A stretch of 64,000 nucleotides of DNA, taken from IMG/VR virus record IMGVR_UViG_3300022654_000026, positions 1 to 64,000 of that record; one strand, given 5' to 3'. Origin of the DNA: a virus. Its lineage: Duplodnaviria; Caudoviricetes. Position 1 is the stretch's first letter. Every line of letters starts with the position of its first letter. Shown in pieces: positions 13,121 to 34,914 of the stretch. Under the pieces are notes generated by a model, which made no database searches, was not told the origin of the DNA, and saw only the letters and a program-made list of their open reading frames with translations. The position numbers were made by a program, and so were the translations under genes.

Positions 13121-13137
13121 AGAGAGGAGTGATGACG

Positions 13138-13902
13138 ATGGCTCAAAATGTCTTATTTGTTCGTACAACAAAAGAAAAACAAATAAACCGAAAACAATAT
13201 AATCCTAACGCGTTATATTTTTGTGTTGACTCTAGAGAGTTTTATCGCGCCAATCAGCTGCTGACCGATGGTGTAAGAGTTGTTGCGTCCTATGATGCAT
13301 TGCCAGCATTTAATGTGGCGGCAGATGGCATTCTTTATTTTGTTGAAGACACAAAGAACGGTTATGTGTTGAACGCAACACGTGATGGTTGGCTACAGGT
13401 GATTTATGCGCCAAATGATATAGCGCTGGAAGACAAAGAGGAAATTATAGTAACAGTTAAAGAAGAAGTTCTAAAGACTGTTTATACAAGAGAAGAAATT
13501 GACAACCTGATTTCAGACGATGTTAAGTCTATTATGTTTGCCGGAATTGAGATGACTGAGTCAGATGGCGTGTTTAGCATTGATAAAGACGCCGCTCTAA
13601 ATGCCCTTGGCCTTGGTGACATGGAGCAGGTAGAAGCAAATATATTGAAGTCTATTACTTTCGCTGGCACAGAAATGACCGAACTTGAGGATGGTGTTTT
13701 TGGCATTGATAGAGAGGCTGCGCTGAATGCTCTTGGCATTAGCATACCGGAAAGTGAAAGCGGAGAGCAGGAAGTAATAGCGACGGAATCAGTTGTTACT
13801 GAAAAGGTCGAGGAAATGTCTGATGAACTCAAGACATATATAGATGAACAGATTAAAGAAGTAGAAACACCTACTGAAACAATAGATTATGGGGAGATCT
13901 AA
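13138..13902 (+). CDS. Fibre-associated protein with an internal ~40-aa duplication
   Basis: KSIMFAGIEMTE-SDGVFSIDKDAALNALG / KSITFAGTEMTELEDGVFGIDREAALNALG; ends IDYGEI. Confidence 0.55.
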   Translation: MAQNVLFVRTTKEKQINRKQYNPNALYFCVDSREFYRANQLLTDGVRVVASYDALPAFNVAADGILYFVEDTKNGYVLNATRDGWLQVIYAPNDIALEDKEEIIVTVKEEVLKTVYTREEIDNLISDDVKSIMFAGIEMTESDGVFSIDKDAALNALGLGDMEQVEANILKSITFAGTEMTELEDGVFGIDREAALNALGISIPESESGEQEVIATESVVTEKVEEMSDELKTYIDEQIKEVETPTETIDYGEI

Positions 13903-13905
13903 CAC

Positions 13906-14262
13906 ATGGCGACACTACAACTAAAACGTGGTACTGCTAGTCGCTGGTCTGAGTTGAATCTGGTGTTGGCGGCTGGTGAGCCCGGCTTTGTCACAGATGA
14001 AAACAGACTCAAAATTGGTGATGGTACTACCGCATGGAATGACCTTCCTTATGTTGGCGAGAGTTGTGTAGTGAATGCAAGTACACGTTATGACTTCCCG
14101 TCTGTAGGAAAGGCGAATGTAATTTATAAAGCAGAATCAGAACAGATGATTTATCAGTGGAATCCTACGGCACTTAGATATGAAGCACTAAATAGTGTGG
14201 AATCCGACGTGCCTTTGGAGATAAATTTAATTCATGGAGGTAACGCAAATGGCAACTCTTAA
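13906..14262 (+). CDS. Mtd N-terminal/hyaluronidase-N-like fibre module protein
   Basis: LQLKRGT...LAAGEPG...LKIGDG.TAWNDLPY motif. Confidence 0.65.
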   Translation: MATLQLKRGTASRWSELNLVLAAGEPGFVTDENRLKIGDGTTAWNDLPYVGESCVVNASTRYDFPSVGKANVIYKAESEQMIYQWNPTALRYEALNSVESDVPLEINLIHGGNANGNS

Positions 14263-15355
14263 TACGAGAATTATTTTAAGAAATGATTCTACTGCCAACT
14301 GGGAAGCCGTAAAGGCAGACGACAGTTCTATCCTGCTCAAGGGTGAAGTTGGCGTCGAGTTCAATCCAGATGCTACAAGCACTGGCGCAGTCACCAAGTT
14401 TAAGATTGGTGATGGAGTTAGTAGATGGGAAGACCTTCCCTATTACGAAGAAACTTTTGAAAAAGACTTTATTTTTACGAGCCAGTTTGGTAAGTATGCT
14501 CCCGATAGCACCGGTAGCGTAACTGTTGCCGCAAAAGGCAAAACTATGTCCGAATTACTCACTGATGCTTATTCCACGGAAGACACAGAGTTTAATACTG
14601 ATGGGCATAAAATTACTATGCCGAGTATTACTCTGACGGCAGGGTCAAATAATGGTTATAAGGCGTATGAAGTTGGTACGTCTGTAAGTCCTACATATAG
14701 CGTTTCATTTAATGCAGGTTCGTATCCTTATGGCCCAGCAACTGGCATAACGGTTAAAGACTATGCTGTCACTTTCAATGGCGAAACTCTGACCGGTGCA
14801 AGCGGTACGTTTGCAACCTTTAATGTGCCAGATGATTTCAGCCAGGCTGTAAGCGCTTATGCTAATTATAATGCTGCTACGGCTAGCCCCAATTCCAACC
14901 TGGGTAATCCAGTAGATGCTAAAAAGATTGGTGAGGGCAAGACCGCTGCAAAAACTGGCTCAACATTATCAAGCTATAGAAGCATTTTCTATGGTTATGT
15001 AACAAAGGATGTTGCTGATCTGACTTCTGCGGATATTCGTGGTCTTACAAATGGTGGTGCTTATACTGCTGCAAGAAATGTTGAGATTAAGGCGAACGGC
15101 GCAACAGATGTTAAGTATTTTGTTGTTGCTATTCCTAGCTCTAATACTAGAGGTGGTATTAACAAGGTTGAATCTACCGCAGGTATGACCGTTGAAGTTA
15201 CAGATCAGTGGACAAAGAATGGCAAAACAATGAAGGTGGCAGACGCCCGTGGTACTGTTGATGGCGAAGATATTAATGCGGTAGACTATAAGATTTCTTA
15301 TTGGACTTCTGCAACTATTGATGCTGCTACAGTACATAAGGTATATCTTGCATAA
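14249..15355 (+). CDS. Mtd_N-like fibre protein with Ig-like/beta-rich C-terminal domains
   Basis: RIILRND...LLKGEVG...FKIGDG..WEDLPY; YEVGTSVSPT motif. Confidence 0.6.
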   Translation: MATLNTRIILRNDSTANWEAVKADDSSILLKGEVGVEFNPDATSTGAVTKFKIGDGVSRWEDLPYYEETFEKDFIFTSQFGKYAPDSTGSVTVAAKGKTMSELLTDAYSTEDTEFNTDGHKITMPSITLTAGSNNGYKAYEVGTSVSPTYSVSFNAGSYPYGPATGITVKDYAVTFNGETLTGASGTFATFNVPDDFSQAVSAYANYNAATASPNSNLGNPVDAKKIGEGKTAAKTGSTLSSYRSIFYGYVTKDVADLTSADIRGLTNGGAYTAARNVEIKANGATDVKYFVVAIPSSNTRGGINKVESTAGMTVEVTDQWTKNGKTMKVADARGTVDGEDINAVDYKISYWTSATIDAATVHKVYLA

Positions 15356-15368
15356 GGAGGACTAAAAT

Positions 15369-17171
15369 ATGGCTGTTTTTAATGTACCTAATTATTTAGC
15401 AAAAGACGGCTTTGGCATGTCACTGAATATTAGACGTGGCAATCCAAATCCTCTTGATAATAGCTCCGTATGGGCAAGCCTTGCGGAAGCACAGAATTAT
15501 GCAAAGACAGATCCGGTTGCATACGTTGGTCAGATTTTAACTGTTGTAACAGACGTTGTAGTTGACGAAGTAACCGTTAAGACTGCCACGGCTTATGTTA
15601 TCGATAACGAGGCCGGTGATCTTAAGGAAGTCGGATCTTCTCCTGTTGGCGACGAGAAATCTATTACTGTCGCTGAAGATGGCACCGTAAGCCTTTATGG
15701 TATTGCCGGACTTGCTCTTACCAGAGAAGAGGAAGATGGCTCTACTACTAATATTACTTATCAACCTTTACTTGTTAATGGCAAACTTACTTGGGTTGAG
15801 CCTAGCGCTACTACCGTAGAAGGTCTTGCTACTGAGATTGAAGGTCTTAAGACGAGAATTAGTGCACTTGAGAATGCCGTTGGCAAGGCAGCTGAAGGTG
15901 AAACCGAAGCTACTGGACTTGTTAAGGACGTTGCGGATCTCGGTGCTCGTCTTACTACCGCTGAAGACGCAATTGATGACATTGCCGTTATTATTAATGG
16001 CAGAGAGGCCGCAGAAGGCGTAGAGGCTGTAACCGGACTTACTGCACTCATCGCAGAGAATGCTCAGGGCATTTCTGATATTAATGATAAGATTGGAACC
16101 GTAGAAGATGGCAAGACCATCGTGGAGTTAATTGCAGAAGCCGAAGGCAAGATTCCAACAAATATCTCTGCATTTACGAATGATTCAAAATATCAGACCG
16201 ATACTCAGGTTCAGGCAACTGTTGAGGCTGCTATTGCCGGAATTAATCATGCTGTCTTTGAAAAGGTAGAACAAATTCCAGAAGCAAGTGCTGCAACCGA
16301 TAATGTTCTTTATCTCGTTCCTGGTACAGATGGCACACATCACGACATTTATGCAAAAATTAATGGTACGATGGTGCTTATCGATGACACGGATGCAGAT
16401 CTAAGTGGATATGCTAAGCTTAGCGACCTGCATGAACACACTAACAAAGAGGTCATTGATGCAATTACATCTGCAAGAGTGACCGCATGGGATGCTGCCG
16501 AGCAGAATGCGAAAGATCACGCAGATGGTCTAAATACCGCTATGGATACTCGCGTTGCTGGCCTTGAGGCAGTTGGCGCAGAGAAGAACGTTATTGCTAC
16601 CGTAGATACCACACAGTTCACCATTGATGGAAATAGAAACCTGACTCTACTTGATGTTGCTATGAGCAAGGTTACTGGTCTTACTGACGCTCTTGCTGGT
16701 AAGGTTGACAAAGTCGAAGGTTCTCGTTTACTTACTGAAGACGAAGCCACAAAGCTGGAAAAACTTGTTCTGGGTGATAATGGTGAGGTTTCCGTATCCG
16801 GTAAGGTTGCAGCAGGTAATGTCGATGGCTTAGATGCTTGGATTACTGCTCGTGCAGGTACGCTTACTGGTCTTTCTGAGAACAACCTGACCGATGCTCT
16901 TGTTGAAAAGATTAATGGAGTTGAAGCTGGCGCACAAGTTAATAAGATTGAAAGTGTCACTCTTGGCGGTACAGCTATTACGATTTCCAATAAGACTGTT
17001 GATATTCCTGTGGCCGCTATGGAAGCACTTGGTTTAGTTAAGTCTTCTGATGCAGAGAACAAGATTTCTGTTGCCGCAGACGGCACTATGGAAGTAAATA
17101 GCATTAACGTTAATAAGCTTGTACAAACCGACGGCGATACGCTCATTCTTAATGGCGGTTCCGCGAAATAA
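15369..17171 (+). CDS. Coiled-coil fibre protein
   Basis: PLD...AYVGQ N-terminus, heptad-rich shaft, GAQVNKIESV motif, ends LILNGGSAK. Confidence 0.6.
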   Translation: MAVFNVPNYLAKDGFGMSLNIRRGNPNPLDNSSVWASLAEAQNYAKTDPVAYVGQILTVVTDVVVDEVTVKTATAYVIDNEAGDLKEVGSSPVGDEKSITVAEDGTVSLYGIAGLALTREEEDGSTTNITYQPLLVNGKLTWVEPSATTVEGLATEIEGLKTRISALENAVGKAAEGETEATGLVKDVADLGARLTTAEDAIDDIAVIINGREAAEGVEAVTGLTALIAENAQGISDINDKIGTVEDGKTIVELIAEAEGKIPTNISAFTNDSKYQTDTQVQATVEAAIAGINHAVFEKVEQIPEASAATDNVLYLVPGTDGTHHDIYAKINGTMVLIDDTDADLSGYAKLSDLHEHTNKEVIDAITSARVTAWDAAEQNAKDHADGLNTAMDTRVAGLEAVGAEKNVIATVDTTQFTIDGNRNLTLLDVAMSKVTGLTDALAGKVDKVEGSRLLTEDEATKLEKLVLGDNGEVSVSGKVAAGNVDGLDAWITARAGTLTGLSENNLTDALVEKINGVEAGAQVNKIESVTLGGTAITISNKTVDIPVAAMEALGLVKSSDAENKISVAADGTMEVNSINVNKLVQTDGDTLILNGGSAK

Positions 17172-17190
17172 TATATTATATGTACGCAAT

Positions 17191-17218
17191 AACGATAGGT
17201 CTATTCAGGCTTATCGTT
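17191..17218 (+). terminator. Intergenic hairpin (terminator or processing/stabilising stem)
   Basis: AACGATAGGTCT-attc-AGGCTTATCGTT. Confidence 0.5.
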
Positions 17219-17254
17219 GATTTAATAATTACGTAATTAAAGGAGATAATAATT

Positions 17255-19258
17255 ATGGCAACTAAAGAACTTATGACTAGAATTCAATCTAAAATTGCTA
17301 CTCTTGCTGAATGGAAAGCAGTTGAAGAAACATTTAAGCCTCTGAGAGGTGAAATTTGCATTGCAGAAGTTGAATCTGATCCTATTGCGTCTACAGCTCC
17401 CACTATGCTCATCAAAGTTGGTGACGGCGAGACTTTTTTCAAGGATCTGACATGGCTTTCTGCGAGAGCAGCGGATGTTCAGAGCTTCCTGAAGGTTGAC
17501 TCTAATGGTGCTGCTTGGACAAAATCCAACTTCGAAGCATGGATTAAGTCTCTTGTAACTATCGATGACGTTGATACAAGCGCGTTTGCTCTTAAGACTG
17601 AAGTACAGGCAGTTGATGCAAAGGCAGAGAAGAATAAGACTGATATCGCTGAACTGACTGCTAATTACAATACTTTCACTGGAACTACTTATGTTAACGA
17701 CAAGGCCGAACTTGTTGCCGATATCGAAGCTGCTCAGAAGGCTGCTGATGATGCACAGGATGACCTTGACGCATACAAGACTTCTAACGACGCGGCTGTT
17801 GGCAAGGCTCTTACTGACGCAAAGGAATACACTGATGAGTTGAAGGACGGTGCAGTTAAGACCAATACAGAAAACATTGGTAAGAATACAACTGCAATTG
17901 CTACTCTTAGAACAGACATTCAGACTGGTGATTCCGTCAATGACTTCAAGGCTGTAGAAACTGCACTTGCTGGTAAGCAGGCTGTTGGTGACTATGCTAC
18001 TAAGGCTGAGGCTCAGGGCTATGCTGACGCTAAGAATGATGCTATCGCAGAGGCTAAGAAGGCTGGTACTGATGCGGCTGCTGCTGTAACTGCGCTTGAA
18101 AACGGCAAGGTTAAGGACAACGCTGATGCTATTGCTGAACTTGAAACAGCAGTTGAAAATCTCGGTGGAACTTCCGCTGACACCTATGAAACAAAGACTG
18201 ACGCTGCTCAGAAGTTAACCGACGCCAAGGATTACACCGATGAACTTGCAAATGGTCAGGTAAAGGCTAACAAAGAGGCTATTGAAAAGCTCAATGGTGA
18301 CGCAACTGTTGAAGGCTCTGTTGACAAGAAGGTTGCTGATGCAATCAATGACTTTGCTACCAAGGTAACTGGTGACAACAACACCTATGATACATTCAAA
18401 GAACTCGTTAACTACGTTGCTAACCACGGTGGCGAAGCCGCTGAAATGGCTGCTGCTATTGACGCACTCGAAACCAAGATGGGCGAAACTTCCGTTGATG
18501 CACAGATTAAGGCTGCTATCGCCGCTGAAAATCTTGATCAGTACGCAACAGATGGTGACCTTGCTGGTCTCGCAGGCACTGTATCTGCTATGGACACTGC
18601 TTACAAGGCAGCAGACAAGACTCTTCAGGACAACATTGATGCTGCCGTAGGCAGAGTTGCAACCCTGGAATCTGAAATGGATTCTGCTGAGGGCAGACTG
18701 GACTCTCTGGAAGCACATGTTAAGGATGTTGAAACCAATGCGGAAAAGAATATCATCGAAACCGTTAAGGTTAATGGTGTTGCTCTGACTCCTGATGCTT
18801 CTCGCGCAGTTAATGTAACCGTTCCTACTGGTGCTCTTGCCTCTAAGGACAAAGTTAGCAAGACTGATCTTGGTGAAGCTCTTGCTACAGAACTTGATGC
18901 AAAGGCTACTGAGGCAGATCTAACTCTTGCTGAGGGCAGAATTTCTCAGAACGAGACTGATATCGATGCTCTACAGGACAAGGCTCACGAGCACGGCAAT
19001 AAGGCGCTTCTTGACACTTACACTCAGACTGATGCAAATCTTGCTGATGCCGTTGCTAAGAAGCACGAGCATGCGAACAAAGCTGTTATCGATGGTATTG
19101 ACGCAGACGACATCACAACTTGGAACACTGTTACATCCAAGGCTGCTGCTTCTGATCTGACTGCTGCTACTAACAGAGTTACTGCTCTTGAAGACAGAAT
19201 TGGCTTTGACGGCGATGTTCTGATTTTCAATTGTGGCAGTTCTACTATCAATGTTTGA
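17255..19258 (+). CDS. Mtd_N-like long coiled-coil fibre protein, probably high copy
   Basis: PLRGEICI...IKVGDG...LTW; repeated AKEYTDEL/AKDYTDEL and HEHxNK motifs; capsid-like codon bias. Confidence 0.6.
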   Translation: MATKELMTRIQSKIATLAEWKAVEETFKPLRGEICIAEVESDPIASTAPTMLIKVGDGETFFKDLTWLSARAADVQSFLKVDSNGAAWTKSNFEAWIKSLVTIDDVDTSAFALKTEVQAVDAKAEKNKTDIAELTANYNTFTGTTYVNDKAELVADIEAAQKAADDAQDDLDAYKTSNDAAVGKALTDAKEYTDELKDGAVKTNTENIGKNTTAIATLRTDIQTGDSVNDFKAVETALAGKQAVGDYATKAEAQGYADAKNDAIAEAKKAGTDAAAAVTALENGKVKDNADAIAELETAVENLGGTSADTYETKTDAAQKLTDAKDYTDELANGQVKANKEAIEKLNGDATVEGSVDKKVADAINDFATKVTGDNNTYDTFKELVNYVANHGGEAAEMAAAIDALETKMGETSVDAQIKAAIAAENLDQYATDGDLAGLAGTVSAMDTAYKAADKTLQDNIDAAVGRVATLESEMDSAEGRLDSLEAHVKDVETNAEKNIIETVKVNGVALTPDASRAVNVTVPTGALASKDKVSKTDLGEALATELDAKATEADLTLAEGRISQNETDIDALQDKAHEHGNKALLDTYTQTDANLADAVAKKHEHANKAVIDGIDADDITTWNTVTSKAAASDLTAATNRVTALEDRIGFDGDVLIFNCGSSTINV

Positions 19259-19278
19259 TAAAGTTTGTTAAGTTTTAT

Positions 19279-19306
19279 GGGACTGGCTTGAAAAATAGCC
19301 AGTCCT
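19279..19306 (+). terminator. Intergenic hairpin
   Basis: GGACTGGCT...AGCCAGTCC stem between genes. Confidence 0.5.
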
Positions 19307-19338
19307 AATTTATATAGGATAATAAAGGGAGATGATGA

Positions 19339-22300
19339 ATGCCAATGGCAACGAAGATTATTACACAACATAGGCGAGGCACCGCTGAACAATGGATAGA
19401 ATCTGGTATTATCCCTTATGCTGGAGAAATTGTAATCGAAGAATGCCCCGATGGAACATTTAAAACAAAAATCGGCGACGGCGTAAATGTTTTTGCTAAT
19501 TTGCCATATCAAAACTTGGACGATGAATTATCTGAACTAAAAACATATGTGGATGGCAAGGTTGTCGATGGTCTTTTTTACGAAGATAATAAACTCTATT
19601 TGACGTTGAATGGAGAAATTGTATCCGAGCCGGTTGAAATTGTTGGTGGTGGAGGTGGCGGTGTCTCTTCTTATAGCGTTCGTCTTGTTAATGGCATGTC
19701 ATCTAATACATTGACGGTTGCGTTGGCCGACAGGACGATGCTGACCGCATATTTTTATGAAAAATACGGCAACGAATCAACTGGAGTTAATGGTACGCTA
19801 AACGTTTTATATAAATTAAGTACCGATACGGAGTGGATACAATATAAAACTCAGACTGTTCCACAAGACACACCGTTCTCTATCGACGTGGCGGCAATTC
19901 TTTCTTTAGGAACTACAACAGATATTAAATTCACTGTAACCGGTGGAGAATCTCTTATTGATAAATCATTAACATATCATGTAACGCCAGTTGAAGTTGG
20001 CATTGAAGCAATCAACTTTAATGGTTCTGCGGTGTATACTGGCAATATCAACTTTCAGTACCGTTGTGTTGGTAGAAATTTACATAAGACGGTGTATTTT
20101 GAAATTGATGGCGATGTGTGTGATGAAATTGATATAGGAACGAGCCACTATTCGGTTTTATCTCATACAATAAAGATGCTTGGCAACTATGATTATGGAG
20201 CACACGACTTAAGAGTATATTTTAAAACAAGCGACGGAGCAACATCTAATATTTTGAAATATTCTTTGTTATACAATAATGGTACAAGCTCGCAGCCAAT
20301 GATTGGTGTTGTATGCACACAAGAAGAGATTACCTATGGTGAAGTTCTTAGTGTGGATTATACTGTATATACTCCTGGGAAAGAAACTACGGACGAATTG
20401 AATATCTCCGTTTATAGCGTCGATGATTATGGCATGAGAACAGTTTATGAAAGCTCTACGTTGATTAATGTTGCTAATAATACATTGTATACATGGAACG
20501 GAACATCTTATCCACTTTCGGGAACGGTGTATATTGAGTTTACAAGTGGCTCTACATCGAAGGTGATTGCGGCAACTATTAATAGCTTGCAAACTAAATA
20601 TGACTTAGAAAAAGTATCAACAAGCTTGGTATATAACTACACGGCTAATGGACGAAGCAATAATGACGCTGGCAAGGAATTATATGAGTGCAGATATACT
20701 ACCGCAAATGGAATACAAACAGTTATTGAAAGCAAATTTGAAGGATTTAACTGGGTATCTAATGGTTATATTGATGGAGAATCTGTCACTTTGAGTGGTG
20801 ACGCTAGACACACTATTGAACTTCCGATGTTTGCTACAAGTTATACGGATCGTGATGGACAAACAATTAGTCTTGAGAATGTTGCCAACTCGACAGTAAC
20901 AACAAACGGACGTACATTTGAGATTGAATTTAAGGTCAGCAATGTAACTGATATTGAGGCACATATTATTAAATGCCTATCATCTGATCACGCTGGCTTC
21001 GTTGTTACTCCACAAAATTGCTACATGTTGCATTCTGATGGATCTAATGTACAAATGGATGACACGGGGTTCATTGAGAATGAAGAAAGCATTGCGGCAG
21101 CCTACATTAGAGACAATACTCGCATTCGACTTAGTTTTGTTATTGAGCCGAGAGGTTCCGTTCAATATACTCTCGAAGACGGCAAGAAAATGACCGGTCA
21201 ATGCGTTAATATTTATATTAATGGACAATTTGCAAATTCGTATGTTTACCCAGATAATGCACGGTTCCTAAGTCAGGAATATATTACGATGGGTGACAAC
21301 AGTTGTATTTTAAGTGTATATGACGTGAGAATTTATAACCGTGGACTTAGTGCGGTTGAAATTCTACAAAACTATAATGCATCGCCACTGTCTGTTCAAG
21401 ATAAGCTGCTTCGATTTGAGGATAATGATGTATTAAATGATGATGGCGATGTGGACTATGATAAAGCTATTTATAAATACCCATGTCTTCTTATTACTGG
21501 ACCACTTTCTCCCTACAAAGGTGCTAATGGCGTTAAAATGGTGGGTAAAGTAGAGTCTGGCGTTACACTTACTAAACCTGACGGAAATGGCGGATATACA
21601 GTAGAGTGGGATTTACTTGACAAAGACTTAAACGGAAACTGGGTAAGCTGTAATAATGTACAAGGTACGTCTTCGCAGAAATTCCCTCGTAAGAACTATA
21701 AGATATATTTGGTCAAGGCTTTATATAACGAAGATGGCACTCTTCAGACGGAAGAAAAAGATGGTGTCGTAAAGACAAAGACCAAGAAAGTCAAATATTC
21801 ATTAAAGGGCAAGGATGTCGCTGGTAATGAGCTGTCTATTGGTGAAAGCACGTTATGTTATAAGATAGATTTTATGTCTTCAGATCACGCGAATACTTTC
21901 AATGCAAATTTGGCTGACACGTTATTTGATGATGTGACAGCATCACAACAAATTGACCCTCGTGTACAAAATACCATTTGGGGATTTAGGTGTTTGTTAT
22001 TCCGCAGAGATGATGTTGGAGCACCAATTGAGTTCGCTGGTGATGGCGCATTGAACAATGATAAGGGCAACACAAAAACATTTGGGCTTGAACGCGATGA
22101 TGATAAAGGTAATGATACCACTTGCCAGAAGTGGGAGTTCCTAAACAACACAGAGGCACTAACTTCTTTCCAAAGCGACCGTTTGTTTGAGGAAGTTACT
22201 TCTGAGGGCAAAACAGTGTTGCGTGCTACACTTGGTCTTGAGTCTACTTACCCAGATCAGGGAGATCTTAAGGATGAGGGACTTACGCCGAAATATGACC

Positions 22301-25455: not shown

Positions 25456-26019
25456 ATGGCGGAAAAGAATATAGCTTCTCGCATAGTGCACAAGCACGAT
25501 ACAGAAGCAAATTGGCTTAAAGCCACAACATTCGTTCCTAAACAAGGCGAATTAATTGTTTATGACAGAGACGCATCGCATTCATATGAACGTTTCAAGA
25601 TTGGTGATGGTACGACTTCTGTCAATAGTTTGCCATTCACCAATGATCTAGCCAACTTAGGCATTTATATTGGCGATACCAAGCCAACTGATCCAAATAT
25701 TAAGATATGGATTAATACTGCTGAGGAAGGTGCCGGGGTGGTGCCTGTACTACCTAGAATTGCAACGGTTACTTTACCTGCTAGCGGTTGGACTGGTAGT
25801 GCCAATCCTTATAGTCAGGTAGCAACTGTAAATGGAGTTACGGTTAATAGCAAATTAGACTTGCAACCAACAGCTCAGCAAATTGTACAATTGCAAAATG
25901 AAGATATTGCCTTAATGGCAGAGAATAATGGTGGCACTGTTACATTTTATGCTTTAGGCGGCAAGCCAAAGGTTGATTATACCATGCAGGTATTATTAAC
26001 GGAGGTGGCGTTTGTATGA
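25456..26019 (+). CDS. Mtd_N-like fibre module protein with a C-terminal small beta domain
   Basis: PKQGELIVY...FKIGDG...LPF; C-terminal TVTLPASGW..PYSQ domain paralogous to 27677..27988. Confidence 0.6.
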   Translation: MAEKNIASRIVHKHDTEANWLKATTFVPKQGELIVYDRDASHSYERFKIGDGTTSVNSLPFTNDLANLGIYIGDTKPTDPNIKIWINTAEEGAGVVPVLPRIATVTLPASGWTGSANPYSQVATVNGVTVNSKLDLQPTAQQIVQLQNEDIALMAENNGGTVTFYALGGKPKVDYTMQVLLTEVAFV

Positions 26020-26213
26020 TAATCGCAGGTAATATGGTTGGCTGTTATAGCATGCTTGGAAAGACATTTGTGATTGAAGACGAAAACGGTTCTGAGGTCA
26101 TGGCGGTCATTGTGGATCAAGAGACCATATTGACAGCAACGGACGAAGATGTTAAGAAGGGTAAAGTTTACGCTTCTGATAATGGCGTATCTGTTGGTAC
26201 GCTTGAGGTATAA
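26016..26213 (+). CDS. Small hypothetical fibre-associated protein
   Basis: GGAGGTG SD, ATGA overlap; TATDEDVKKGK motif. Confidence 0.55.
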   Translation: MIIAGNMVGCYSMLGKTFVIEDENGSEVMAVIVDQETILTATDEDVKKGKVYASDNGVSVGTLEV

Positions 26214-26291
26214 TTATAAGTCTAATGTAATAGGAAAAGAAACATAACAAAATTATTAAATTTTAACAAAAGATAAAGGAGGTTACTTGAA

Positions 26292-27230: not shown

Positions 27231-27243
27231 GGAGGAATAAACG

Positions 27244-27612: not shown

Positions 27613-27619
27613 CAGTTTT

Positions 27620-27646
27620 GGAGCTCGATAATACGGGCTCCTTTTT
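27620..27646 (+). terminator. Intrinsic terminator
   Basis: GGAGCTCG-ataata-CGGGCTCC followed by TTTTT. Confidence 0.7.
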
Positions 27647-27676
27647 ATTAAATTCAAAAGGAGGCGTTTTGTAAAA

Positions 27677-27988
27677 ATGGCTACAAAAAAAATACAGATT
27701 TTGGGCAACTTACACCAACCTAGCGTAAAAGTGACAGAAATTACTTTATTGTCGGCAAACTGGGAAGGCGATACAAGCCCTTACTCACAGGAAGTAGTAA
27801 TTGATGGCATTACGCCATATAGTCAGGTCGATCTTAAACCAGACGTTTTCCAGCTTGCCGAGTTTCACAACAAAGACCTCGCTTTCGTTACAGAAAACGA
27901 TGACGGGGTTGTTACGGTTTATGCGATTGGGGATAAGCCACGCAACGATCACACAATACAGGTATCCATCACGGAGGTGAGTGTATGA
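27677..27988 (+). CDS. Small fibre adaptor, paralog of the 25456 C-terminal domain
   Basis: ITLLSANW...PYSQ...DLKP...TENDDGVVTVYAIGDKP..D.TIQV..TEV. Confidence 0.6.
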   Translation: MATKKIQILGNLHQPSVKVTEITLLSANWEGDTSPYSQEVVIDGITPYSQVDLKPDVFQLAEFHNKDLAFVTENDDGVVTVYAIGDKPRNDHTIQVSITEVSV

Positions 27989-29775
27989 AAATCATAGGCT
28001 ATACTGTTGGAACCACAAGTCCAAAACCTAGTTTTGCGCAGACCGACCCGAAAAAGGGAGATTATATTAAGGATAAAGAAGTCCTAGAGGCCGAAATAGA
28101 TGAAAGGCTGTCCGGTGTTGCTTATATCGATTCGGCAGACAATGAAAATGTTCAAGTCGAAGAGGTTCCCTCTGTGGGTGGGGACGTTCCGGTTGAATCT
28201 GGCACCGGCGACAATTCAATTCAGCAATCTGATACGGGGGCACTAGCTCTAGGTGAAAACTCAGCAGCTTTTAATAATAGTGTCGCAGGTTGTATGGGCT
28301 TTAGATACAAGGGACTTGACCTTGTAAATCATAAAATTTATCTTACAACTGATGACAAGATTACTTATCAAGATATTCAGTTTAAAGGTACTGAAAACGA
28401 TGCTTTTGATGAAGAATCATTGATTGACAATGAACTACAGATAAATGAATATTACAAAAACGGAGATATATTCTCACTTAAAACTCGTGGTATTGATTGT
28501 GATAATGTTGGTGTAATAACTACTATTGAAAATAATGTTGTTACATTTGAACCTGGTACTAAAATTGATGCATTAACAAAAGCGCAAGTTCAAACAGAAG
28601 ACACTTATAGTGATCGTTATAGTTTCTTTGTTCCATCAAAACCAATACAAGGTGTGGTTGTAGTCTCTGATCATTCAGCAGCATTTGGCATTAGTATGGA
28701 TAAAACTAATGCTGCTACTGGTAGATATTCCATTGCTGCTGGTAGAGATAACTTAGCTTATGGTGATGGTGCTGTTGCAATGGGCCGAGAATGCACAGCA
28801 GGATATGGTTGTATATCACTTGGATTTAATGCTGATGCAATCGGTGATAGAAATGTAGCCATAGGAGTTAATGTCACAAACAAGGGCAACAATTCGGTAG
28901 CTACAGGCGCAAGTACTCAAATATTAGAAAACGGTCAATATTCATTCGTTTCTGGCTTTAAAAACTATGCTAGACATCCTGGCGTCGCTATGTTTGGTAG
29001 ATTGAATGGCTATTCATATACGCCTGATCAGGCTGTTTTTGGCGTTGGCGCTAAGATGAAATCTACTACTGGAGCTTTACTAGTTGTAGGTAATGGCAAA
29101 ATAACTGGTACAACACCTAATACATTTGCTGTAGCTGATGAAGATCGTTCTAATGCTTTCTTGGTTTGGAATGATGGCAGAGCTACCGTTGGGGCAGCTC
29201 CTAAGAATGATATGGATGTTGTTAATAAAGGTTCTGTAGCTTCTATAATGAAAAATACTTTACCTTTACAAAAAGGAAGCAATACAAACAGTGTTAGATC
29301 TATTAACGAAAACTGTGTAGCAGATGGTGCTCATAGTTTTGCTTTCGGGGAACAAGCTGTAGTTACTTCTGCAGGAAGTAACAGTATTGCATTAGGTAGA
29401 TTGGCTGAAGTAAGAGCACCGTTTAGTACTGCTATTGGACGTGGTGTAAAAACTGCCGAAAACACTGCAGTTTCTCCAAATAGAGATCAATTTGTAATTG
29501 GCAGATATAATGAAATACTTGATGCGTTCCCAAGCTCAGGTTCTCATAAAGACAACTATAAAGCTGCCGCTTTTGTAGTTGGTGTAGGTAATGGTGATGA
29601 TAAATATGCGAATGACGGAACTATAATAACTAAGAACCGTAAAAATGGTCTTGTTGTATGGGGAGATGGTCGTGTTACTGCTGGAGCAAGCCCAACAGGT
29701 AATATGGATGTTGTTACTAAACAATATCTTGAAGAATATATTAATTCTTTGAGCGGAGACGAGGTGGCTTACTGA
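27985..29775 (+). CDS. YadA-head-like (trimeric beta-roll) adhesin/fibre protein
   Basis: SIAAG/AVAMG/SIALG-type repeats; VVGNG...RSNAF.VW.DG; paralog of 30805..33174. Confidence 0.65.
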   Translation: MKIIGYTVGTTSPKPSFAQTDPKKGDYIKDKEVLEAEIDERLSGVAYIDSADNENVQVEEVPSVGGDVPVESGTGDNSIQQSDTGALALGENSAAFNNSVAGCMGFRYKGLDLVNHKIYLTTDDKITYQDIQFKGTENDAFDEESLIDNELQINEYYKNGDIFSLKTRGIDCDNVGVITTIENNVVTFEPGTKIDALTKAQVQTEDTYSDRYSFFVPSKPIQGVVVVSDHSAAFGISMDKTNAATGRYSIAAGRDNLAYGDGAVAMGRECTAGYGCISLGFNADAIGDRNVAIGVNVTNKGNNSVATGASTQILENGQYSFVSGFKNYARHPGVAMFGRLNGYSYTPDQAVFGVGAKMKSTTGALLVVGNGKITGTTPNTFAVADEDRSNAFLVWNDGRATVGAAPKNDMDVVNKGSVASIMKNTLPLQKGSNTNSVRSINENCVADGAHSFAFGEQAVVTSAGSNSIALGRLAEVRAPFSTAIGRGVKTAENTAVSPNRDQFVIGRYNEILDAFPSSGSHKDNYKAAAFVVGVGNGDDKYANDGTIITKNRKNGLVVWGDGRVTAGASPTGNMDVVTKQYLEEYINSLSGDEVAY

Positions 29776-30602
29776 TGGCTAAAAAATTATATGAAGAAGA
29801 AAATATAAGAGCTATTGCAGAAAGAATTCGCCAAAACGCAGCAGCCTTAACAGCTCCTACATATACTGTAGCAGAAATGGCTCATGGTGTCGATTTAGTC
29901 TATAGTGAAGGATTTGATAACGGATACTACGAAGGTGAAGGAATAGGTTATCAAGATGGCTGGGATATGGGCTGGGATGATGGCTGGGGATATGGATATA
30001 CTTGTGGTGAAGAAGATGGTTGGGAATGGGGTTTTAATGACGGTTATGACGCAGGTGTAGAAGACAGTGCAGCATCTGGAATTAAAGAATTTTTAAAGAA
30101 ATATCAGAAAAATGGCGACAGAACTGATTATAACTACGCATTTCGTGGTGATTGGTGGGATGACACTACATTTCAGCCAACATATAATATTGTTTGCGAT
30201 TCCGCTAAAAGTATTTTTGAAGAAAGCGGAATAAGCACAATACCTGTTACGCTTGATATTTCAAATTGTCTTAATTTAGAGTATGCTTTTAATGCTTGTT
30301 GCGTAGAAACAATTAAAGAAATGATTGTTTCAGAGAAAACTGAATTTGATATCACAACCTTTATAATTGCTGAATCTCTTAAAAATGTGACGGTAACTGG
30401 AGTAATAGGCAAAGATTTATTTATGGGTAATTGTTATTTCCTTTCTTATGATAGCATTGTTTCTATCATAAACGCATTGTCTAATACTACCTCTGGATTA
30501 AGTGTTACATTCTCCGAAGAGGCAAAATTGGATGCATTTGTGGATGACGAGTGGGAAGCATTAGTTGCCACTAAACCCAACTGGACTATATCGCTTATAT
30601 AA
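29775..30602 (+). CDS. Fibre-tip protein with GxxxG repeats and an LRR-like C-terminus
   Basis: GYYEG/GYQDG/GWDDG repeats; LDISNCLNLEYAF; LSYDSIVSIINAL...NWTISL. Confidence 0.55.
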   Translation: MAKKLYEEENIRAIAERIRQNAAALTAPTYTVAEMAHGVDLVYSEGFDNGYYEGEGIGYQDGWDMGWDDGWGYGYTCGEEDGWEWGFNDGYDAGVEDSAASGIKEFLKKYQKNGDRTDYNYAFRGDWWDDTTFQPTYNIVCDSAKSIFEESGISTIPVTLDISNCLNLEYAFNACCVETIKEMIVSEKTEFDITTFIIAESLKNVTVTGVIGKDLFMGNCYFLSYDSIVSIINALSNTTSGLSVTFSEEAKLDAFVDDEWEALVATKPNWTISLI

Positions 30603-30616
30603 GGAGAAATATAAAT

Positions 30617-30787
30617 ATGAGAAATGTAATTACAGCAACAGAAGGACATATTCTAACTGATGGTCATGTATATGGAAAGGTTATTTACCTTGCCGAGGGT
30701 GTAGATGTGTCTACTTTCTATGAAATAACAAAAGAAGAATATCGTGAGATTATCGGCAGAAAAGAAGCAGAACGAATAAATAATTAA
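30617..30787 (+). CDS. Small hypothetical protein, 56 aa (MRNVITATEGHILTDG...); absent from the ORF track
   Basis: Translated by hand; SD AAGGAG; FYEITKEEY motif. Confidence 0.65.
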   Translation: MRNVITATEGHILTDGHVYGKVIYLAEGVDVSTFYEITKEEYREIIGRKEAERINN

Positions 30788-30804
30788 TAAAGGAGGAATT
30801 TATT

Positions 30805-33174
30805 ATGTCAACTACGATTAAAACAGGTTGGCTAAATGATAAAAATGGAGATAAATTTGCTCCTAAAACACTAACATCGCAAGTGCAAACTAGTGATGGA
30901 ACTTTAATTGAAGATAAGATTGCTCAAGATATACAGAAAGCTTTAGATACTATTGAAATTCCAGATGTAACAGGTTATGCAAAGTTAGAGGATATTCCTA
31001 CTAATGTATCGTCTTTTAATAACGATGCTGGCTATTTAACAGAACATCAATCTCTTGCTGGCTATGCTACAGAAAAGTATGTAGATGATGCGGTTAGTAA
31101 TAAAGCTGACACGAATCACAATCATGATGAATTATATGATAAAAAAGGTTCTGCAGAACAAGTTAAAAATGATCTTCTTAACGGGGCTGGACCTGCATAT
31201 GATACTCTAAAAGAGCTTGGCAGTCTAATTGCTGAAAACGTTGATGCAATAGAAGCATTAGAAACTATTGCAACAAACAAAGCAGATAAAGTTCATAATC
31301 ATGATGAGTTATATGATCCTATTGGTTCTGCTGCTGCAGTTGAAGCAAAGATGGTAGTAACAAAGGGTTCAGGTGATAATTCAGTTCAGCAAGTTAAAAC
31401 AAATGCTCAAGCATTAGGAATCGATTCTGCAGCTTTCAATAACTCTATTGCAGGGTGTAGAGGTTATAGGTATAAAGGTATTGATCTCGTAGATCATAAG
31501 ATTTTTCTTACAGCAGATGACAATATTACTTATCAAGACATAAAGTTTACAAAAGATGAACGTTTTGATGAAAATACACTTAACTCATTGATTGACTACA
31601 ACATGGATGTAACAGATAAAGGAGATAGCAACGGTGGTTATTCCGTGGGAGATGTTTTCACATTAAAAACACGATCCATTGATCTTGATATGATTGGAAC
31701 AATCACTCATATCCAGAATAATATAATAACTTTTGCTCCTGGAACTGCTATCGATGATTTAACATTAGGGGACATTCAAAAAGAAGATACATATTCTGAT
31801 AGATATAGCTTCTTTGTTCCTAGTAAACCACATGTAGGTGCTGTTTGTGTTTCTGATAACTCAGCTGCTTTCGGTGCTAGTGTCGACACTATAAATGCTG
31901 CTACGGGTCGTTTTTCATTTGTAGCTGGTCGTGATAATCTTGCCTATGGTGATAATGGTATTGCTATGGGTCGTGAATGCGTAGCTGATTATTCAGCTAT
32001 AGCTCTCGGACAACAAAGTTCTGCTCTCTCAAAGAGAAGCGTCGCTATTGGTTTTAATAATGTGGTTACTGGAGATAGAGCTATTGCTATTGGCTTAAAT
32101 CTTGTTAATGACGCTCCTCTTTCTTTTGCTGCTGGAGCTAGTAATGAAAATACAGCTAATGCTCGTCATTCGTTTACAGCAGGTCTTTTAAATACAGTAA
32201 ATCATCCTGGATCTGTCATGTTGGGCCGAGTTAATGGAACAAGTACTGCTGAAGACCAAACTATTATTGGTAGAGGTGCTAAAAATGAAGGCACAGAAAA
32301 TGCACTATTTATTATTGGTAATGGAGCAATAACAAGTACACCTTCCAACACTTCTATTAAAGATCGAGATCGTTCTAATGCATTTGTAGTTTGGAATGAT
32401 GGTAGAACAACAATAGGGGCTGCACCGACAGATGGCATGGATGCTACCAATAAAGATTATGTAGATAACAGTATTAACAATGCTAAAACCGAGCTTAGTA
32501 CTGCTATTAATAAAATACCTTTAATACAAGGTGATAAAGTAGGCTCAGCTCAAGGAGCAGCAAGTAGTAGTGGTTCAGCCACAGGAAAAAGAAGTTTTGC
32601 GTTTGGATATTTAGCTGAAGCTAGTTCTGATAATACCATTGCAATGGGATCTGAGGCAAAAGCTACAGCAACAAGTGCGATAGCATTAGGAAACTTTACT
32701 AAAGCAAATGGTGCTCATAGTTTTGCTGTTGGATATGAAGCGCAAGCCAATGGAAACCATAGTGTAGTAATGGGTAGAGGGTCTCAAACAAGTGGTTTGT
32801 ATACTTATGCAATAGGTCATGGATTAAAGACAAAAGCACCAGAAGATGGCAATAAACAAATGGATCAAGTTATTGTGGGTACTTATAATGACCCTATAGA
32901 TGCTAGCCCTGCTGATAAGTCTACATCTGGAGCTAGATTTGTTGTTGGTATTGGAACAACAGATACAACTCGTAAAAATGGTTTAGTTGTATGGGGAGAT
33001 GGCCGCGTAACGGTTGGTACAAGCCCAACTGAAAATATGGACGTGGTAACCTTAGAATATCTTCAAAGTCAATTAGGCGCAATCGCACAAGAAAACGAGT
33101 TAATTACAGTAGAAGATATTGATGCTATCTGTGGAACCAATATGGTGACGGCAAATGACGAGGTGAAATTCTGA
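30805..33174 (+). CDS. YadA-head-like adhesin/fibre protein
   Basis: FAPKT N-terminus, NDAGYLTEHQSL, HNHDELYD x2, YDTLKEL, beta-roll repeats; paralog of 27985..29775. Confidence 0.65.
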   Translation: MSTTIKTGWLNDKNGDKFAPKTLTSQVQTSDGTLIEDKIAQDIQKALDTIEIPDVTGYAKLEDIPTNVSSFNNDAGYLTEHQSLAGYATEKYVDDAVSNKADTNHNHDELYDKKGSAEQVKNDLLNGAGPAYDTLKELGSLIAENVDAIEALETIATNKADKVHNHDELYDPIGSAAAVEAKMVVTKGSGDNSVQQVKTNAQALGIDSAAFNNSIAGCRGYRYKGIDLVDHKIFLTADDNITYQDIKFTKDERFDENTLNSLIDYNMDVTDKGDSNGGYSVGDVFTLKTRSIDLDMIGTITHIQNNIITFAPGTAIDDLTLGDIQKEDTYSDRYSFFVPSKPHVGAVCVSDNSAAFGASVDTINAATGRFSFVAGRDNLAYGDNGIAMGRECVADYSAIALGQQSSALSKRSVAIGFNNVVTGDRAIAIGLNLVNDAPLSFAAGASNENTANARHSFTAGLLNTVNHPGSVMLGRVNGTSTAEDQTIIGRGAKNEGTENALFIIGNGAITSTPSNTSIKDRDRSNAFVVWNDGRTTIGAAPTDGMDATNKDYVDNSINNAKTELSTAINKIPLIQGDKVGSAQGAASSSGSATGKRSFAFGYLAEASSDNTIAMGSEAKATATSAIALGNFTKANGAHSFAVGYEAQANGNHSVVMGRGSQTSGLYTYAIGHGLKTKAPEDGNKQMDQVIVGTYNDPIDASPADKSTSGARFVVGIGTTDTTRKNGLVVWGDGRVTVGTSPTENMDVVTLEYLQSQLGAIAQENELITVEDIDAICGTNMVTANDEVKF

Positions 33175-33605
33175 TGAGCAAAGTAATTGTTGACAGAGAA
33201 GATATGGTTTCAATTGCCGACGCTGTAAGAAGTAAAACCGGAACAACGGCTGAAATGTCTATTCCAGAAATAGTTGTTGGTATAGAAGGGATTACTGGCG
33301 GTACAAGCAGTGCGTCTGATATTGGTGTATTTACGATTGATAATAGTGCAGTAGCAAATGTCAATTTTTTGTTTCTAAAAGGTATGACGTTCGAAGATTT
33401 GGCAACTTCTAAAATCAATATTTCATATTATAATGAAGAATTAAATATATCTACGTATTATGTAACAATCGGTAACGGTATGGTAGAGATTAATGATGGA
33501 GGAGGCCTGTCCTTCATTTGGGCGCTCTCAAATGATGGAGATTCTTTCGTAGAGCCAGTAGAACCTATTGAAGAAAAAACATATCTTACACGCGATGTTT
33601 GGTGA
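33174..33605 (+). CDS. Small fibre-tip protein
   Basis: N-terminal IADAVRSKTGTTAEMS motif related to the 29775 N-terminus; TGATG coupling. Confidence 0.55.
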   Translation: MSKVIVDREDMVSIADAVRSKTGTTAEMSIPEIVVGIEGITGGTSSASDIGVFTIDNSAVANVNFLFLKGMTFEDLATSKINISYYNEELNISTYYVTIGNGMVEINDGGGLSFIWALSNDGDSFVEPVEPIEEKTYLTRDVW

Positions 33606-33624
33606 TTAAAAGGAGGTAAAACAT

Positions 33625-34914
33625 ATGGCAAATCAATCAATTTTCGCCGCATTTGAGCGAATGTGGGCACATGTAGTTAATGCTCTTGGTGGTAAAGCAG
33701 ATGTTGGTCACACTCATACAGAATACATGTTTGCTTCAGACCCAGTTGGCACTGGGTCTTTTTCTATGAATAGAAAGACTGGTAGTGTTATTGGATCAAA
33801 CTCTCATGCTGAAGGGCTTGATACTATTGCATCTGGCGACGGCTCTCATGCTGAAGGGCTTTGTACTATTGCATCTGGCGTCACTTCTCATGCAGAGGGC
33901 ATGAGTACATGCACAACGTCGGATTCTACCGTTTCACCATCCGCATCTAGTTGGACTGATGCTGGAGCATGTGGTCATGCAGAAGGATACGGCACTGTAT
34001 CTTATGGTTTTGCATCTCATGCGGAGGGCAATGGAACAGATGCCGAAGGAAAGGCTTCTCACGCAGAAGGTCAGTTAACAAGAGCTCAGGGTGACTATTC
34101 TCATGCAGAGGGAATCGGTACAATCGCAGAGGGAGATGCTTCTCATGCAGAAGGAGTTGAAACGGAAGCCATCGGTACTGCTTCTCATGCTGAGGGAAAT
34201 AAGACTAGTGCATTTCAATATCAACATGTACAAGGACATTATAATTATAATATTGCAGAAGGTTCTATTGCTGGAACAGAAGGAGTAGCTTTTGTAATCG
34301 GCAATGGCGCACCCGGTCATCTTTCAAATGCATTCCGTGTAGATTACAACGGTGTACCATATGCACAGTCTTATTTGGTAGCTTCTGGTGCCGACTATGC
34401 CGAGTTTTTTGAGTGGCAAGACTTGAATCCAAACGATGAAGATAGACGTGGCTATTTCGTAACTCTTGATGGAGATAAGATTAAAATTGCAGAACCAAAC
34501 GACTATATTCTTGGTATCATCAGCGGTCTGCCCGCAGTAATTGGTAATGGAGACGAAAACTGGAGAGGAAGATATATTCTTGACGACTTTGGAGCGTTTA
34601 TTACTGAAGAGTTTGAATATGAAGAAGATGTTTTTGATAAAGAAACGGGCGAAAAGAAAACTGTGACAAAAACAGGAACCAAGTACAAAGAAAATCCGGA
34701 TTATGATCCTTCTCTTCCTTATATTCAGCGTAAAGATAGACCAGAGTGGGATGCTGTCGGTATGTTTGGCGTCTTGGCCGTAAGAGATGACGGCACGTGT
34801 ACTGTTAACGGTTATTGCACAGTAGCAGAAGGCGGAATAGCAACAGCTTCTGAAAGCGGCTATAGAGTAATTAAAAGAGTTAGCGATAATGTTGTGAGGG
34901 TCGTTTTTAAATGA
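33625..34914 (+). CDS. Adhesin with SHAEG beta-roll repeats and a C-terminal intramolecular chaperone (peptidase G2-like) domain
   Basis: About ten (S/G)HAEG repeats; GADYAEFFEW...GYFVTLDG...RPEWDAVGMFG..VRDDG. Confidence 0.75.
   Translation: MANQSIFAAFERMWAHVVNALGGKADVGHTHTEYMFASDPVGTGSFSMNRKTGSVIGSNSHAEGLDTIASGDGSHAEGLCTIASGVTSHAEGMSTCTTSDSTVSPSASSWTDAGACGHAEGYGTVSYGFASHAEGNGTDAEGKASHAEGQLTRAQGDYSHAEGIGTIAEGDASHAEGVETEAIGTASHAEGNKTSAFQYQHVQGHYNYNIAEGSIAGTEGVAFVIGNGAPGHLSNAFRVDYNGVPYAQSYLVASGADYAEFFEWQDLNPNDEDRRGYFVTLDGDKIKIAEPNDYILGIISGLPAVIGNGDENWRGRYILDDFGAFITEEFEYEEDVFDKETGEKKTVTKTGTKYKENPDYDPSLPYIQRKDRPEWDAVGMFGVLAVRDDGTCTVNGYCTVAEGGIATASESGYRVIKRVSDNVVRVVFK
33801..33900 (+). repeat. 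42-bp tandem repeat encoding SHAEGLxTIASG units
   Basis: ctctcatgctgaagggcttgatactattgcatctggcg repeated almost exactly, plus a partial third copy. Confidence 0.75.

Follow-up and report, generated by a model that had tools for sequence, protein, structure and literature searches.

Tailed phages are already known to build fibres from several proteins and to use N-terminal anchor modules, and what is usually missing is the rule of which protein sits on which. The long tail fibre of T4 is made of gp34, gp35, gp36 and gp37, separate proteins placed end to end in gene order; in Bordetella phage BPP-1, the tail fibres (Bbp9) bear Mtd trimers at their distal ends; and CBA120, G7C and Klebsiella jumbo phages have branched systems for receptor binding, with docking domains akin to T4 gp10. 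The N-terminal beta-prism of Mtd presumably attaches the protein to the tail fibre, according to the accessible portion of PMC10743442. Conserved N-terminal adapters in Klebsiella and Acinetobacter phages decide the scaffold on which exchanged receptor-binding bodies are mounted, as stated in the available part of a preprint (bioRxiv 10.64898/2026.02.20.706991), and in the available parts of two reports on the F-type pyocin the distal joint is not resolved (PMC13455828, PMC12874032). Here we analyse a fibre gene cluster in a 64,000-nt stretch of viral DNA (the window), which is the first 64 kb of the 83-kb record IMGVR_UViG_3300022654_000026 (Caudoviricetes; record completeness estimated at about half), and in which short C-terminal tails ("plugs") stand directly before genes whose products begin with particular N-terminal domains ("sockets"). 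The reading we consider likely is that the fibre segments are joined by such matched plug and socket ends in gene order, in several classes denoted A, B and D.

Between 12.3 and 39.5 kb every gene is on the + strand and codes for a protein of fibres or appendages; the genes are numbered here from g1 (12371-13120) through g20 (35267-39472). Five of them have Mtd_N-type N-termini (g3 at 13906, g4 at 14249, g6 at 17255, g7 at 19339 and g8 at 25456). The original prediction had proposed that genes ending in a hydrophobic tag with G(G) are each followed by such a gene, and this pairing holds far above chance: four of the five are preceded by the ends IDYGEI, LIHGGNANGNS, LILNGGSAK and LIFNCGSSTINV, the exception being g8, which follows the tag-less g7. 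The C- and N-termini that it quoted were all found in place, in the translations and in the DNA of the junctions. As a mechanism, we propose that separately encoded fibre segments join end to end via matched ends, roughly in gene order. In class A, the last ~20 residues of a trimeric protein would lie as a beta-strand on the first strand of the next protein's trimeric Mtd_N beta-prism. The window would thus encode two chains, g2-g3-g4 and g5-g6-g7, each begun by a starter that has no Mtd_N (g2, g5), continued by a link with both socket and plug (g3, g6) and closed by an end with a socket only (g4, g7), g8 being a spare or alternative tip. The class A elements are as follows.

13882..13899, + strand: C-terminal tail of g2, IDYGEI, a degenerate class A plug; GGGGAG, which encodes its GE, is the Shine-Dalgarno (SD) site of g3
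13906..14055, + strand: Mtd_N domain of g3, class A socket; 54.4 bits to Pfam PF18454
14221..14259, + strand: C-terminal tail of g3, INLIHGGNANGNS, class A plug; its GG codons, GGAGGT, are the SD site of g4
14249..14470, + strand: Mtd_N-like domain of g4, class A socket; 18.8 bits in Pfam (below cut-off), placed by alignment A3
17109..17168, + strand: last 20 residues of g5, VNKLVQTDGDTLILNGGSAK, class A plug; marked by conservation and predicted interface
17255..17485, + strand: Mtd_N-like domain of g6, class A socket; invariants of alignment A1 and predicted interface with the g5 tail
19196..19255, + strand: last 20 residues of g6, RIGFDGDVLIFNCGSSTINV, class A plug in its Cys-Gly variant; 80 nt to the next gene
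19339..19530, + strand: Mtd_N-like domain of g7, class A socket; 16.3 bits to Mtd_N (below cut-off), placed by alignment A3
25456..25659, + strand: Mtd_N-like domain of g8, class A socket; preceding gene without a plug, placed by alignment A3

In this list, g3 is a 118-aa adaptor bearing both socket and plug, g4 has no plug, and g5 has no Mtd_N domain and lies 83 nt before the next gene. The most likely start of g4 is at 14249, within the g3 tail, and an overlap of -8 to -20 nt is kept in the related loci L016, L019, L021 and L093. A g8-like gene stands directly after a g6-like plug in the relative L083.

The arrangement resembles that of BPP-1, where a tip protein with an N-terminal Mtd_N domain likewise comes from the gene right behind that of the fibre, and the Bbp9 end LADLGGIA resembles class A; in the window the pairs g2/g3, g3/g4, g5/g6 and g6/g7 each have the Mtd_N gene directly downstream of a gene with a tail of the ..GG-x-A type. 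It differs in that BPP-1 has one joint, whereas the window phage would have up to three or four in chain, with adaptors that combine socket and plug. T4 offers the likeness of a fibre of separately encoded trimers in gene order, and by eye also that of a gp36 end ..DFGYY before a gp37 start MATLKQIQFKRS..GELAIN; as a homologous joint this pair was rejected, the gp37 N-terminus being unmatched by our Mtd_N model (E <= 10) and by Pfam Mtd_N (E <= 1). No Pfam or PHROG family of the T4 gp10-like docking type was found among the 20 window proteins scanned. A further comparison is with the streptococcal prophage hyaluronidase HylP: its residues ~3-57 (2c3f, 2yvv, 6x3m) align with the start of g3 at E about 1e-3, and its gene comes immediately behind that of a large tail protein, with the difference that the upstream protein in Streptococcus phage Javan454 ends in IILDGRRDR, a partial tag. 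The Klebsiella and Acinetobacter adapters, as far as the available part of the preprint describes them, are defined on the tip alone and are members of other families, whereas the element described here is a C-terminal peptide on the carrier side, with several classes per phage. A published description of the C-terminal plug motif was not found, which is weak evidence as most subscription journals lay outside the search.

Membership of the five heads in one domain family rests on graded matches. Against the curated Pfam cut-off for Mtd_N (PF18454) of 26.3 bits, g3 passes clearly and g8 scores 23.2 bits alone and 27.3 with its neighbours; g4 and g7 fall below, and g6 has no Pfam match to Mtd_N or any other family. 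Invariant W, GE, K-x-GD and L positions are common to all five (alignment A3). A profile comparison with the Protein Data Bank (PDB) matched g3 residues 4-52 to the HylP structures 6x3m, 2yvv and 2c3f. An Mtd_N model built from alignment A1 and the window's five heads matched 271 of the 1379 proteins of the first locus set described below, all of them N-terminally; matches started within the first 40 residues in 271/271 cases there and in 66/66 in the second set. The domain is common, with 38,866 cluster representatives carrying it (E <= 0.001). Proteins of 2-6 tandem Mtd_N units also exist (P0254, P0256, P0262, P0276), some of which end in a class A plug (LIFDCGDSNS, IIDGGEITG), and the unit can therefore also build a shaft.

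In many phages the same motifs stand at the same positions, are conserved, and adjoin one another in one direction. The class A tag takes the form hydrophobic-x-hydrophobic-(D/N)-(G/C)-G plus 1-10 residues. Hundreds of fibre proteins keep it at their very C-terminus. The best 120 of 1771 matches to the g6 C-terminus include dozens of such proteins, differing in their bodies, that end GD(V/I)L(V/I)(F/L)(N/D)CGS..VN(V/I) and have an Mtd_N-like head, the tag always being terminal. The best 120 of 651 relatives of the g5 C-terminus end ..NVNKLVQ..G..L(I/V)(L/M)(N/D)GG plus 2-6 residues and show N-termini of several non-Mtd_N types. Invariant columns cluster at the two ends of both families: in A1 (18 g6 homologues) they comprise C660 and G661 in the tail and M1, A2, R9, I10, W20, G32, E33 and K54 in the head, and in A2 (29 g5 homologues) K583, Q586, G596 and G597. 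Homologues of g2 end VFDGGEI (L016) and KVIDGGTAFV (L006).

Adjacency was counted in two locus sets, with genes called by a simple script of our own that leaves start codons approximate. The first (13 loci fetched with g5 itself and 80 with the g6 alignment; 94 sources, 1379 genes, 1184 adjacent pairs) comes mostly from related phages, and 80 of its loci were fetched by the tag itself, so that its counts are not independent events: 237 pairs had a tag followed by Mtd_N, 22 a tag only, 31 Mtd_N only and 894 neither. After single-linkage clustering of the junctions at 50% identity the counts were, in the same order, 11/9/6/239 (Fisher p = 2e-10). The second set, 75 loci fetched by patterns other than the tag on contigs partly shared with the first, gave 57/8/7/498. 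The association is directional: Mtd_N occupied the position +1 to the tag gene in 237/281 and 57/67 cases, position -1 in 86/276 and 22/68, and position +2 in 86/278 and 21/61 (first and second set, respectively), that is, 84-85% at +1 compared with 31-34% at -1 or +2. The co-occurrence that had been put forward as a check thus came out in favour of the tag, which predicts Mtd_N at +1 and not at -1 or +2, across the 94 sources. An apparent exception to the rule is found in L005, where a Cys-rich homing-endonuclease-like open reading frame (ORF; 12886-13824) stands between a g6-like plug gene and the next Mtd_N gene. Cys-Gly tails went with short-insert sockets in 15/17 distinct classifiable pairs, and Gly-Gly tails with long ones in 35 and short ones in 39, a comparison confounded by synteny.

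The original prediction had cautioned that some tags coincide with the SD site of the next gene. The junction DNA bears this out for g2 (G-E, GGGGAG), g3 (G-G, GGAGGT), g8 and g12 (T-E-V, ACGGAGGTG) and g13 and g16 (D-E-V, GACGAGGTG), where the codons concerned sit 5-9 nt before the next start codon; it equally confirms that the g5 and g6 tags are not SD sites, their 83- and 80-nt gaps containing separate ones. Tags free of such overlap persist in the first set. Pairs with a gap of at least 14 nt were distributed 212/20/25/736 (both/tag only/Mtd_N only/neither), with 14 kinds of codon pairs for the (G/C)-G dipeptide and a GGAGG-like reading in 7/212. Tight pairs (gap <= 5 nt) were distributed 18/2/6/121, and just 2 of the 123 whose next gene is not Mtd_N carried the tag. 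Spacers between tag and Mtd_N genes range from -20 to +192 nt.

The g5 tail is predicted to bind the g6 head. Three copies of g5 residues 500-600 were co-folded with three copies of g6 residues 1-125 on alignments A2 and A1, and the interface score ipSAE (interaction prediction score from aligned errors) reached 0.78, 0.81 and 0.81, compared with 0.00 for the best of three controls; the mark applied is passed by 116/157 solved complexes and 2/215 mismatched pairs, a calibration only roughly valid for our own alignments and for the multi-copy (3+3) format. Contacts agreed between runs to at least 94%, with a predicted local distance difference test (pLDDT) value of at least 74 for the partners. 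In the predicted interface g5 residues 581-600 meet g6 residues 1-16, 19-20, 22-23, 27 and 30, the g5 strand 592-597 pairing with the g6 strand 6-13, and these regions coincide with the invariant residues of both families. Profile comparison with the PDB gave only coiled-coil noise for g6 and no solved structure related to g5; judged by sequence, it is therefore unlikely that the prediction passed by reproducing a known complex of this kind. Of the binding check that had been called for, this one joint is covered, with a prediction in favour. Docking of the isopeptide tag/catcher kind was considered and dismissed: the residue before G-G varies (D, N, S, F, H, Y), and g6 E33 and K54 lie outside the predicted interface. 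The remaining joints, the order within the chains, the alternative tips and the docking of classes B and D we infer.

Among distant cultured phages, a tblastn search with g3 returned 500 records, and 12 of 60 listed matches, chosen to span host genera, were examined together with BPP-1. The tag was present in 8-9 of these 13, eight having hydrophobic-D-G-G plus 1-4 residues and the ninth being Bbp9. The upstream ends were FDGGEL (Gordonia phage Dardanus), IDGGSV (TM7 phage), FDGGSAA (Arthrobacter phage Nandita), LDGGNSNS (Cellulophaga phage phi19:2), LDGGTP (Microbacterium phage Lupine), IDGGGA (Xanthomonas phage FoX4), LDGGGA (Stenotrophomonas phage Suzuki) and FDGGGA (Pseudomonas phage Epa43). 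Those free of the SD confound were Cellulophaga, with no SD-like run nearby, and BPP-1, where Bbp9 stands directly before Mtd, 15 nt away, and the SD site lies apart from the tag.

A different type of tail and head was identified farther downstream. The original prediction had paired the DEVxY/F ends of two adhesin paralogues with an N-terminal helix of the proteins that follow, and this pairing, here class D, does occur twice in the window.

29752..29772, + strand: C-terminal tail of g13, SGDEVAY, class D plug candidate; GAGGTG, which encodes its EV, is the SD site of g14
29775..29900, + strand: N-terminus of g14, MAKKLYEEENIRAIAERIR..YTVAEM, class D socket candidate; alignment A4, 43 related loci
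33112..33171, + strand: last 20 residues of g16, EDIDAICGTNMVTANDEVKF, class D plug candidate; its EV codons are the SD site of g17
33174..33299, + strand: N-terminus of g17, ..MVSIADAVRSKTGTTAEM.., class D socket candidate, a weaker match

Here, DG(T/S)EV(S/A)Y-type tails (SGDEVAY in g13, NDEVKF in g16) would pair with KKLYEE..IAxAIRxKxG heads (g14, g17). With g14-type heads (KKLYEE.., ..Y(K/T)VAE) 43 loci were fetched, two of them cut before the upstream gene, and the upstream protein ends DG(T/S)EV(S/A)Y in 38 of the 41 readable ones, with one GTGVSY and one GGTEVSY. Tails of this type were found on three different upstream protein bodies, and their codons vary synonymously at D, G, T/S, V, S and Y. 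In L016, AEIDAICGATIYAASEVIL stands ahead of a next gene similar to that in the g16/g17 pair. Judged by sequence, the association is real and wider than the SD site explains, and class D is likely a second class of joint, as a candidate for docking only.

Exchange of tips by recombination, also proposed originally, has a natural instance in which class A and class D meet. In the near-identical phages L006 and L008, the fibres share 96% identity across residues 1-384 and then differ in their tails: that of L006 ends ..YIVLNCGSASVNI and is followed by Mtd_N genes, and that of L008 ends ..TVTIADGTEVSY and is followed by the gene of a 660-aa KKLYEE..IAAAIREKNG protein. A class A tail with its Mtd_N tip has been swapped for a class D tail with its matching tip, and recombination would in general move a plug together with its cognate tip. 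In L007 (7330-7430), the DNA behind ..TVTIADGTEVAY and its stop holds a truncated MKKLYEE start in a different location, the homologous gene of L008 ending otherwise; this junction may be a scar left by recombination, or an artefact of assembly.

The remaining proposed pairing, of a PYSQ domain ending in TEV with a following gene that starts M(K)II(A)G, is present twice in the window and breaks down as a grammar in relatives.

25756..26016, + strand: C-terminal PYSQ domain of g8, end ..LLTEVAFV, paralogous to g12; its TEV codons are the SD site of g9
27677..27985, + strand: g12, a stand-alone PYSQ domain, end ..SITEVSV; its TEV codons are the SD site of g13

The two domains are 41% identical and ..TEV.. 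is their last strand; the likeness between the next genes, g9 and g13, is confined to ~10 residues. What precedes a g9-like gene is a PYSQ-domain protein in the window, in L154 and in L005, and an unrelated 676-683-aa protein, at a 62-nt gap, in L040, L156 and L157. The PYSQ protein of L016 keeps ..KVTEVA (codons ACTGAAGTG) at an 18-nt gap with a separate SD site and an unrelated next gene, and TEV is therefore not only an SD site. We rule this pairing out as a joint and ascribe it to a paralogous domain, an SD imprint and partial synteny. In the same region, g9 (26016-26213) has 65 aa compared with 161-167 aa in its homologues (L154, L005, L040, L156, L157) and looks truncated after the conserved N-terminal part. 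At 27677-29775, the starts of g12 (MATKKIQILG..) and g13 (..QTDPKKGDYIKDK) taken together resemble the single N-terminus of an L156 protein (MATKKLQIISGGTTLQSDWNMTDPEDATYIKNKP; 3208-3702), which looks like an insertion of the PYSQ domain, along with a gene boundary, at that point.

Several findings weigh against matched ends as joints. The tail of g2, IDYGEI, is degenerate. Tag genes lack an Mtd_N follower in 22/259 (first set) and 8/65 (second set) cases, and Mtd_N genes lack a preceding tag in 31 and 7, respectively, in counts whose dependence has been noted above. Natural fusion of plug and socket was seen in none of 11 longer g5-tail relatives, the tag always being terminal, and no DGG stands between the units of the tandem Mtd_N repeats in the 2-6-unit proteins. 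Three of the 13 distant phages (syn9, Kabocha, Qui) have no tag upstream, and the end in Javan454 is but partial. In 5/9 distant positives (TM7, Lupine, FoX4, Suzuki, Epa43) the overlapping start lies 8-12 nt downstream of GG codons that read GGAGG, and the GG codons of Dardanus and Nandita partly overlap an SD-like run. For class D, all 38 positives have a gap of -4, -1 or +1, so that E-V (GAGGTG) is always an SD site, and E-V near the C-terminus was found in 12/147 tight compared with 13/1037 loose pairs, including unrelated next genes, which is a general imprint of tight coupling. The three class D exceptions, with gaps of 164-193 nt, are without the tail, their upstream ends being TVTIAGEG or TVTIG; L118 is without the plug-bearing middle gene that L119 has. 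Jumbo-phage fibres ending IDCG(T/E/D)(Y/F/W) have no Mtd_N gene next. Lastly, the evidence for binding is all computational, concerns one joint, and was obtained with our own alignments in a 3+3 format unlike the calibration.

These findings can be assembled into other explanations. The tags might be by-products of translational coupling, with SD sites read as G-G, G-E or E-V, together with paralogy and conserved gene order, and docking would then not take place at all. The coincidence of GE (g2), GG (g3), TEV (g8, g12) and DEV (g13, g16) with GGAGG-type sites, the E-V enrichment in tight pairs, the GGAGG readings in distant phages and the failure of the PYSQ pairing in relatives all speak for it. 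We nevertheless hold this account to be quite unlikely: class A tags are kept at gaps of 14-192 nt in those 14 codon combinations and are scarce in tight pairs with other next genes, those of Cellulophaga and BPP-1 are not SD sites, and the hydrophobic and D/N positions are left unexplained by an SD site, as is the retention of D, G, S and Y in class D despite synonymous changes; also, the g5/g6 co-fold passes where the controls give 0.00. Alternatively, the tag could be an intrinsic, foldon-like cap for the folding or trimerisation of its own coiled-coil fibre, Mtd_N anchoring elsewhere on the virion and both merely flanking gene boundaries. That the tag invariably terminates alpha-helical shafts rich in repeats suits this idea, as do the tag genes without an Mtd_N follower and the jumbo-phage fibres with related IDCGxY tails, which fit a cap role. 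It is unlikely in view of the +1 specificity and of the dissimilar starter bodies (g1-like in L005, 823-842-aa central tail proteins in FoX4 and Suzuki, a 65-aa protein in Nandita) that bear the tag precisely where the next gene has Mtd_N; moreover, plug type co-varies with the type of the next head in L006 and L008, and the predicted interface falls on invariant residues.

The junction of tail, short spacer and head might also be kept mainly as a recombination linker for cassette exchange, the contact between the proteins being incidental. Mosaic bodies between conserved ends, the L006/L008 swap at the boundary of shaft and tail, and the L007 arrangement, in which ..TVTIADGTEVAY and the truncated start would have moved as a unit, are what such a linker would leave behind. 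Synonymous sites at the tags are diverse, spacers vary over the whole range from -20 to +192 nt, and the motif is kept across unrelated nucleotide compositions, from phages of Actinobacteria to those of Bacteroidota. We hold this reading to be very unlikely; a recombination linker is in any case compatible with docking and not an alternative to it. Taken together, plug-and-socket docking is supported for the class A pairing (conservation, +1 direction, SD-independence, co-fold), which is a real, widespread and probably functional joint; it is plausible for class D, where the SD confound is complete, and finds no support in the PYSQ pairing.

Upstream of the first chain, g1 and g2 provide the elements of class B.

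13097..13117, + strand: C-terminal tail of g1, DYIWVDE, a candidate class B plug containing Trp; from translation
13138..13287, + strand: N-terminal domain of g2, ..NALYFCVDSREFY.., a candidate class B socket; no Pfam match

The g2 head is an LYFxTDT-type N-terminus, onto which the Trp tail of g1 would dock. In a small sample, 6/6 distinct heads of this type in the loci are preceded by Trp tails at gaps of 17-60 nt, with the Trp 4-5 residues from the end (DYIWVDE in g1, KWSDM, EWSDM, QWKIL, SWKELG, VWESF). A class B joint would extend the first chain to g1-g2-g3-g4. Tails ..TIIIGGK, ..TVTIASEG and ..TVTIAGEG stand before ..V.(Y/F)G..LIDLT.D(T/S)VTAD..L..TAH heads in L119 (2-2501) and L118 (961-1563), in tandem two or three times, and a TVTIxxG tail followed by a LIDLTxDTVTAD head is possibly a further pair.

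Were a C-terminal peptide to predict the next partner, the architecture of fibre and tip would become inferable from sequence in uncultured Mtd_N-bearing phages. Such a rule would explain why the ends of mosaic fibre genes are conserved and their bodies variable, and it would supply defined junction points for natural tip exchange. Tentatively, and at somewhat less than even chance in our estimate, a combinatorial grammar of several orthogonal plug/socket pairs (A, B, D and possibly TVTIxxG/LIDLT) may be common to tailed phages ranging from BPP-1 to ~170-kb gut phages; the pairs would set the order of segments and be exchanged along with the tips, and gene order could then directly reveal how a fibre is built and which tips can be swapped.

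A search for near-identical cultured phage records found none. Among the other products of the cluster, g7 (2020 aa) has BspA-type leucine-rich repeats at its C-terminus (Pfam LRR_5, 2e-44) and is the presumed distal adhesin of its chain; g13 and g16 are paralogues with YadA-head repeats, g10 has head-fibre repeats, and g18 is a Peptidase_G2 pre-neck-appendage-like protein. In jumbo phages of 195-361 kb (L158, L179, L219), fibres combine a ..GEIAV(Q/N/K)H.. head with an IDCG(T/E/D)(Y/F/W) end, and in L158 and L179 they are paired with a very basic protein between them. A 63-aa ORF with a TTG start at 7663-7854 of the window ends in the plug-like ..VDTLNGGDSNV, the next gene (7892) being without an Mtd_N head; it may be spurious, or its plug partner may be encoded elsewhere. 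Terminator-like hairpins with T-rich tails lie in the g6-g7 spacer (19278-19307) and in the g11-g12 spacer (27620-27641), and could set different expression levels for the members of a chain.

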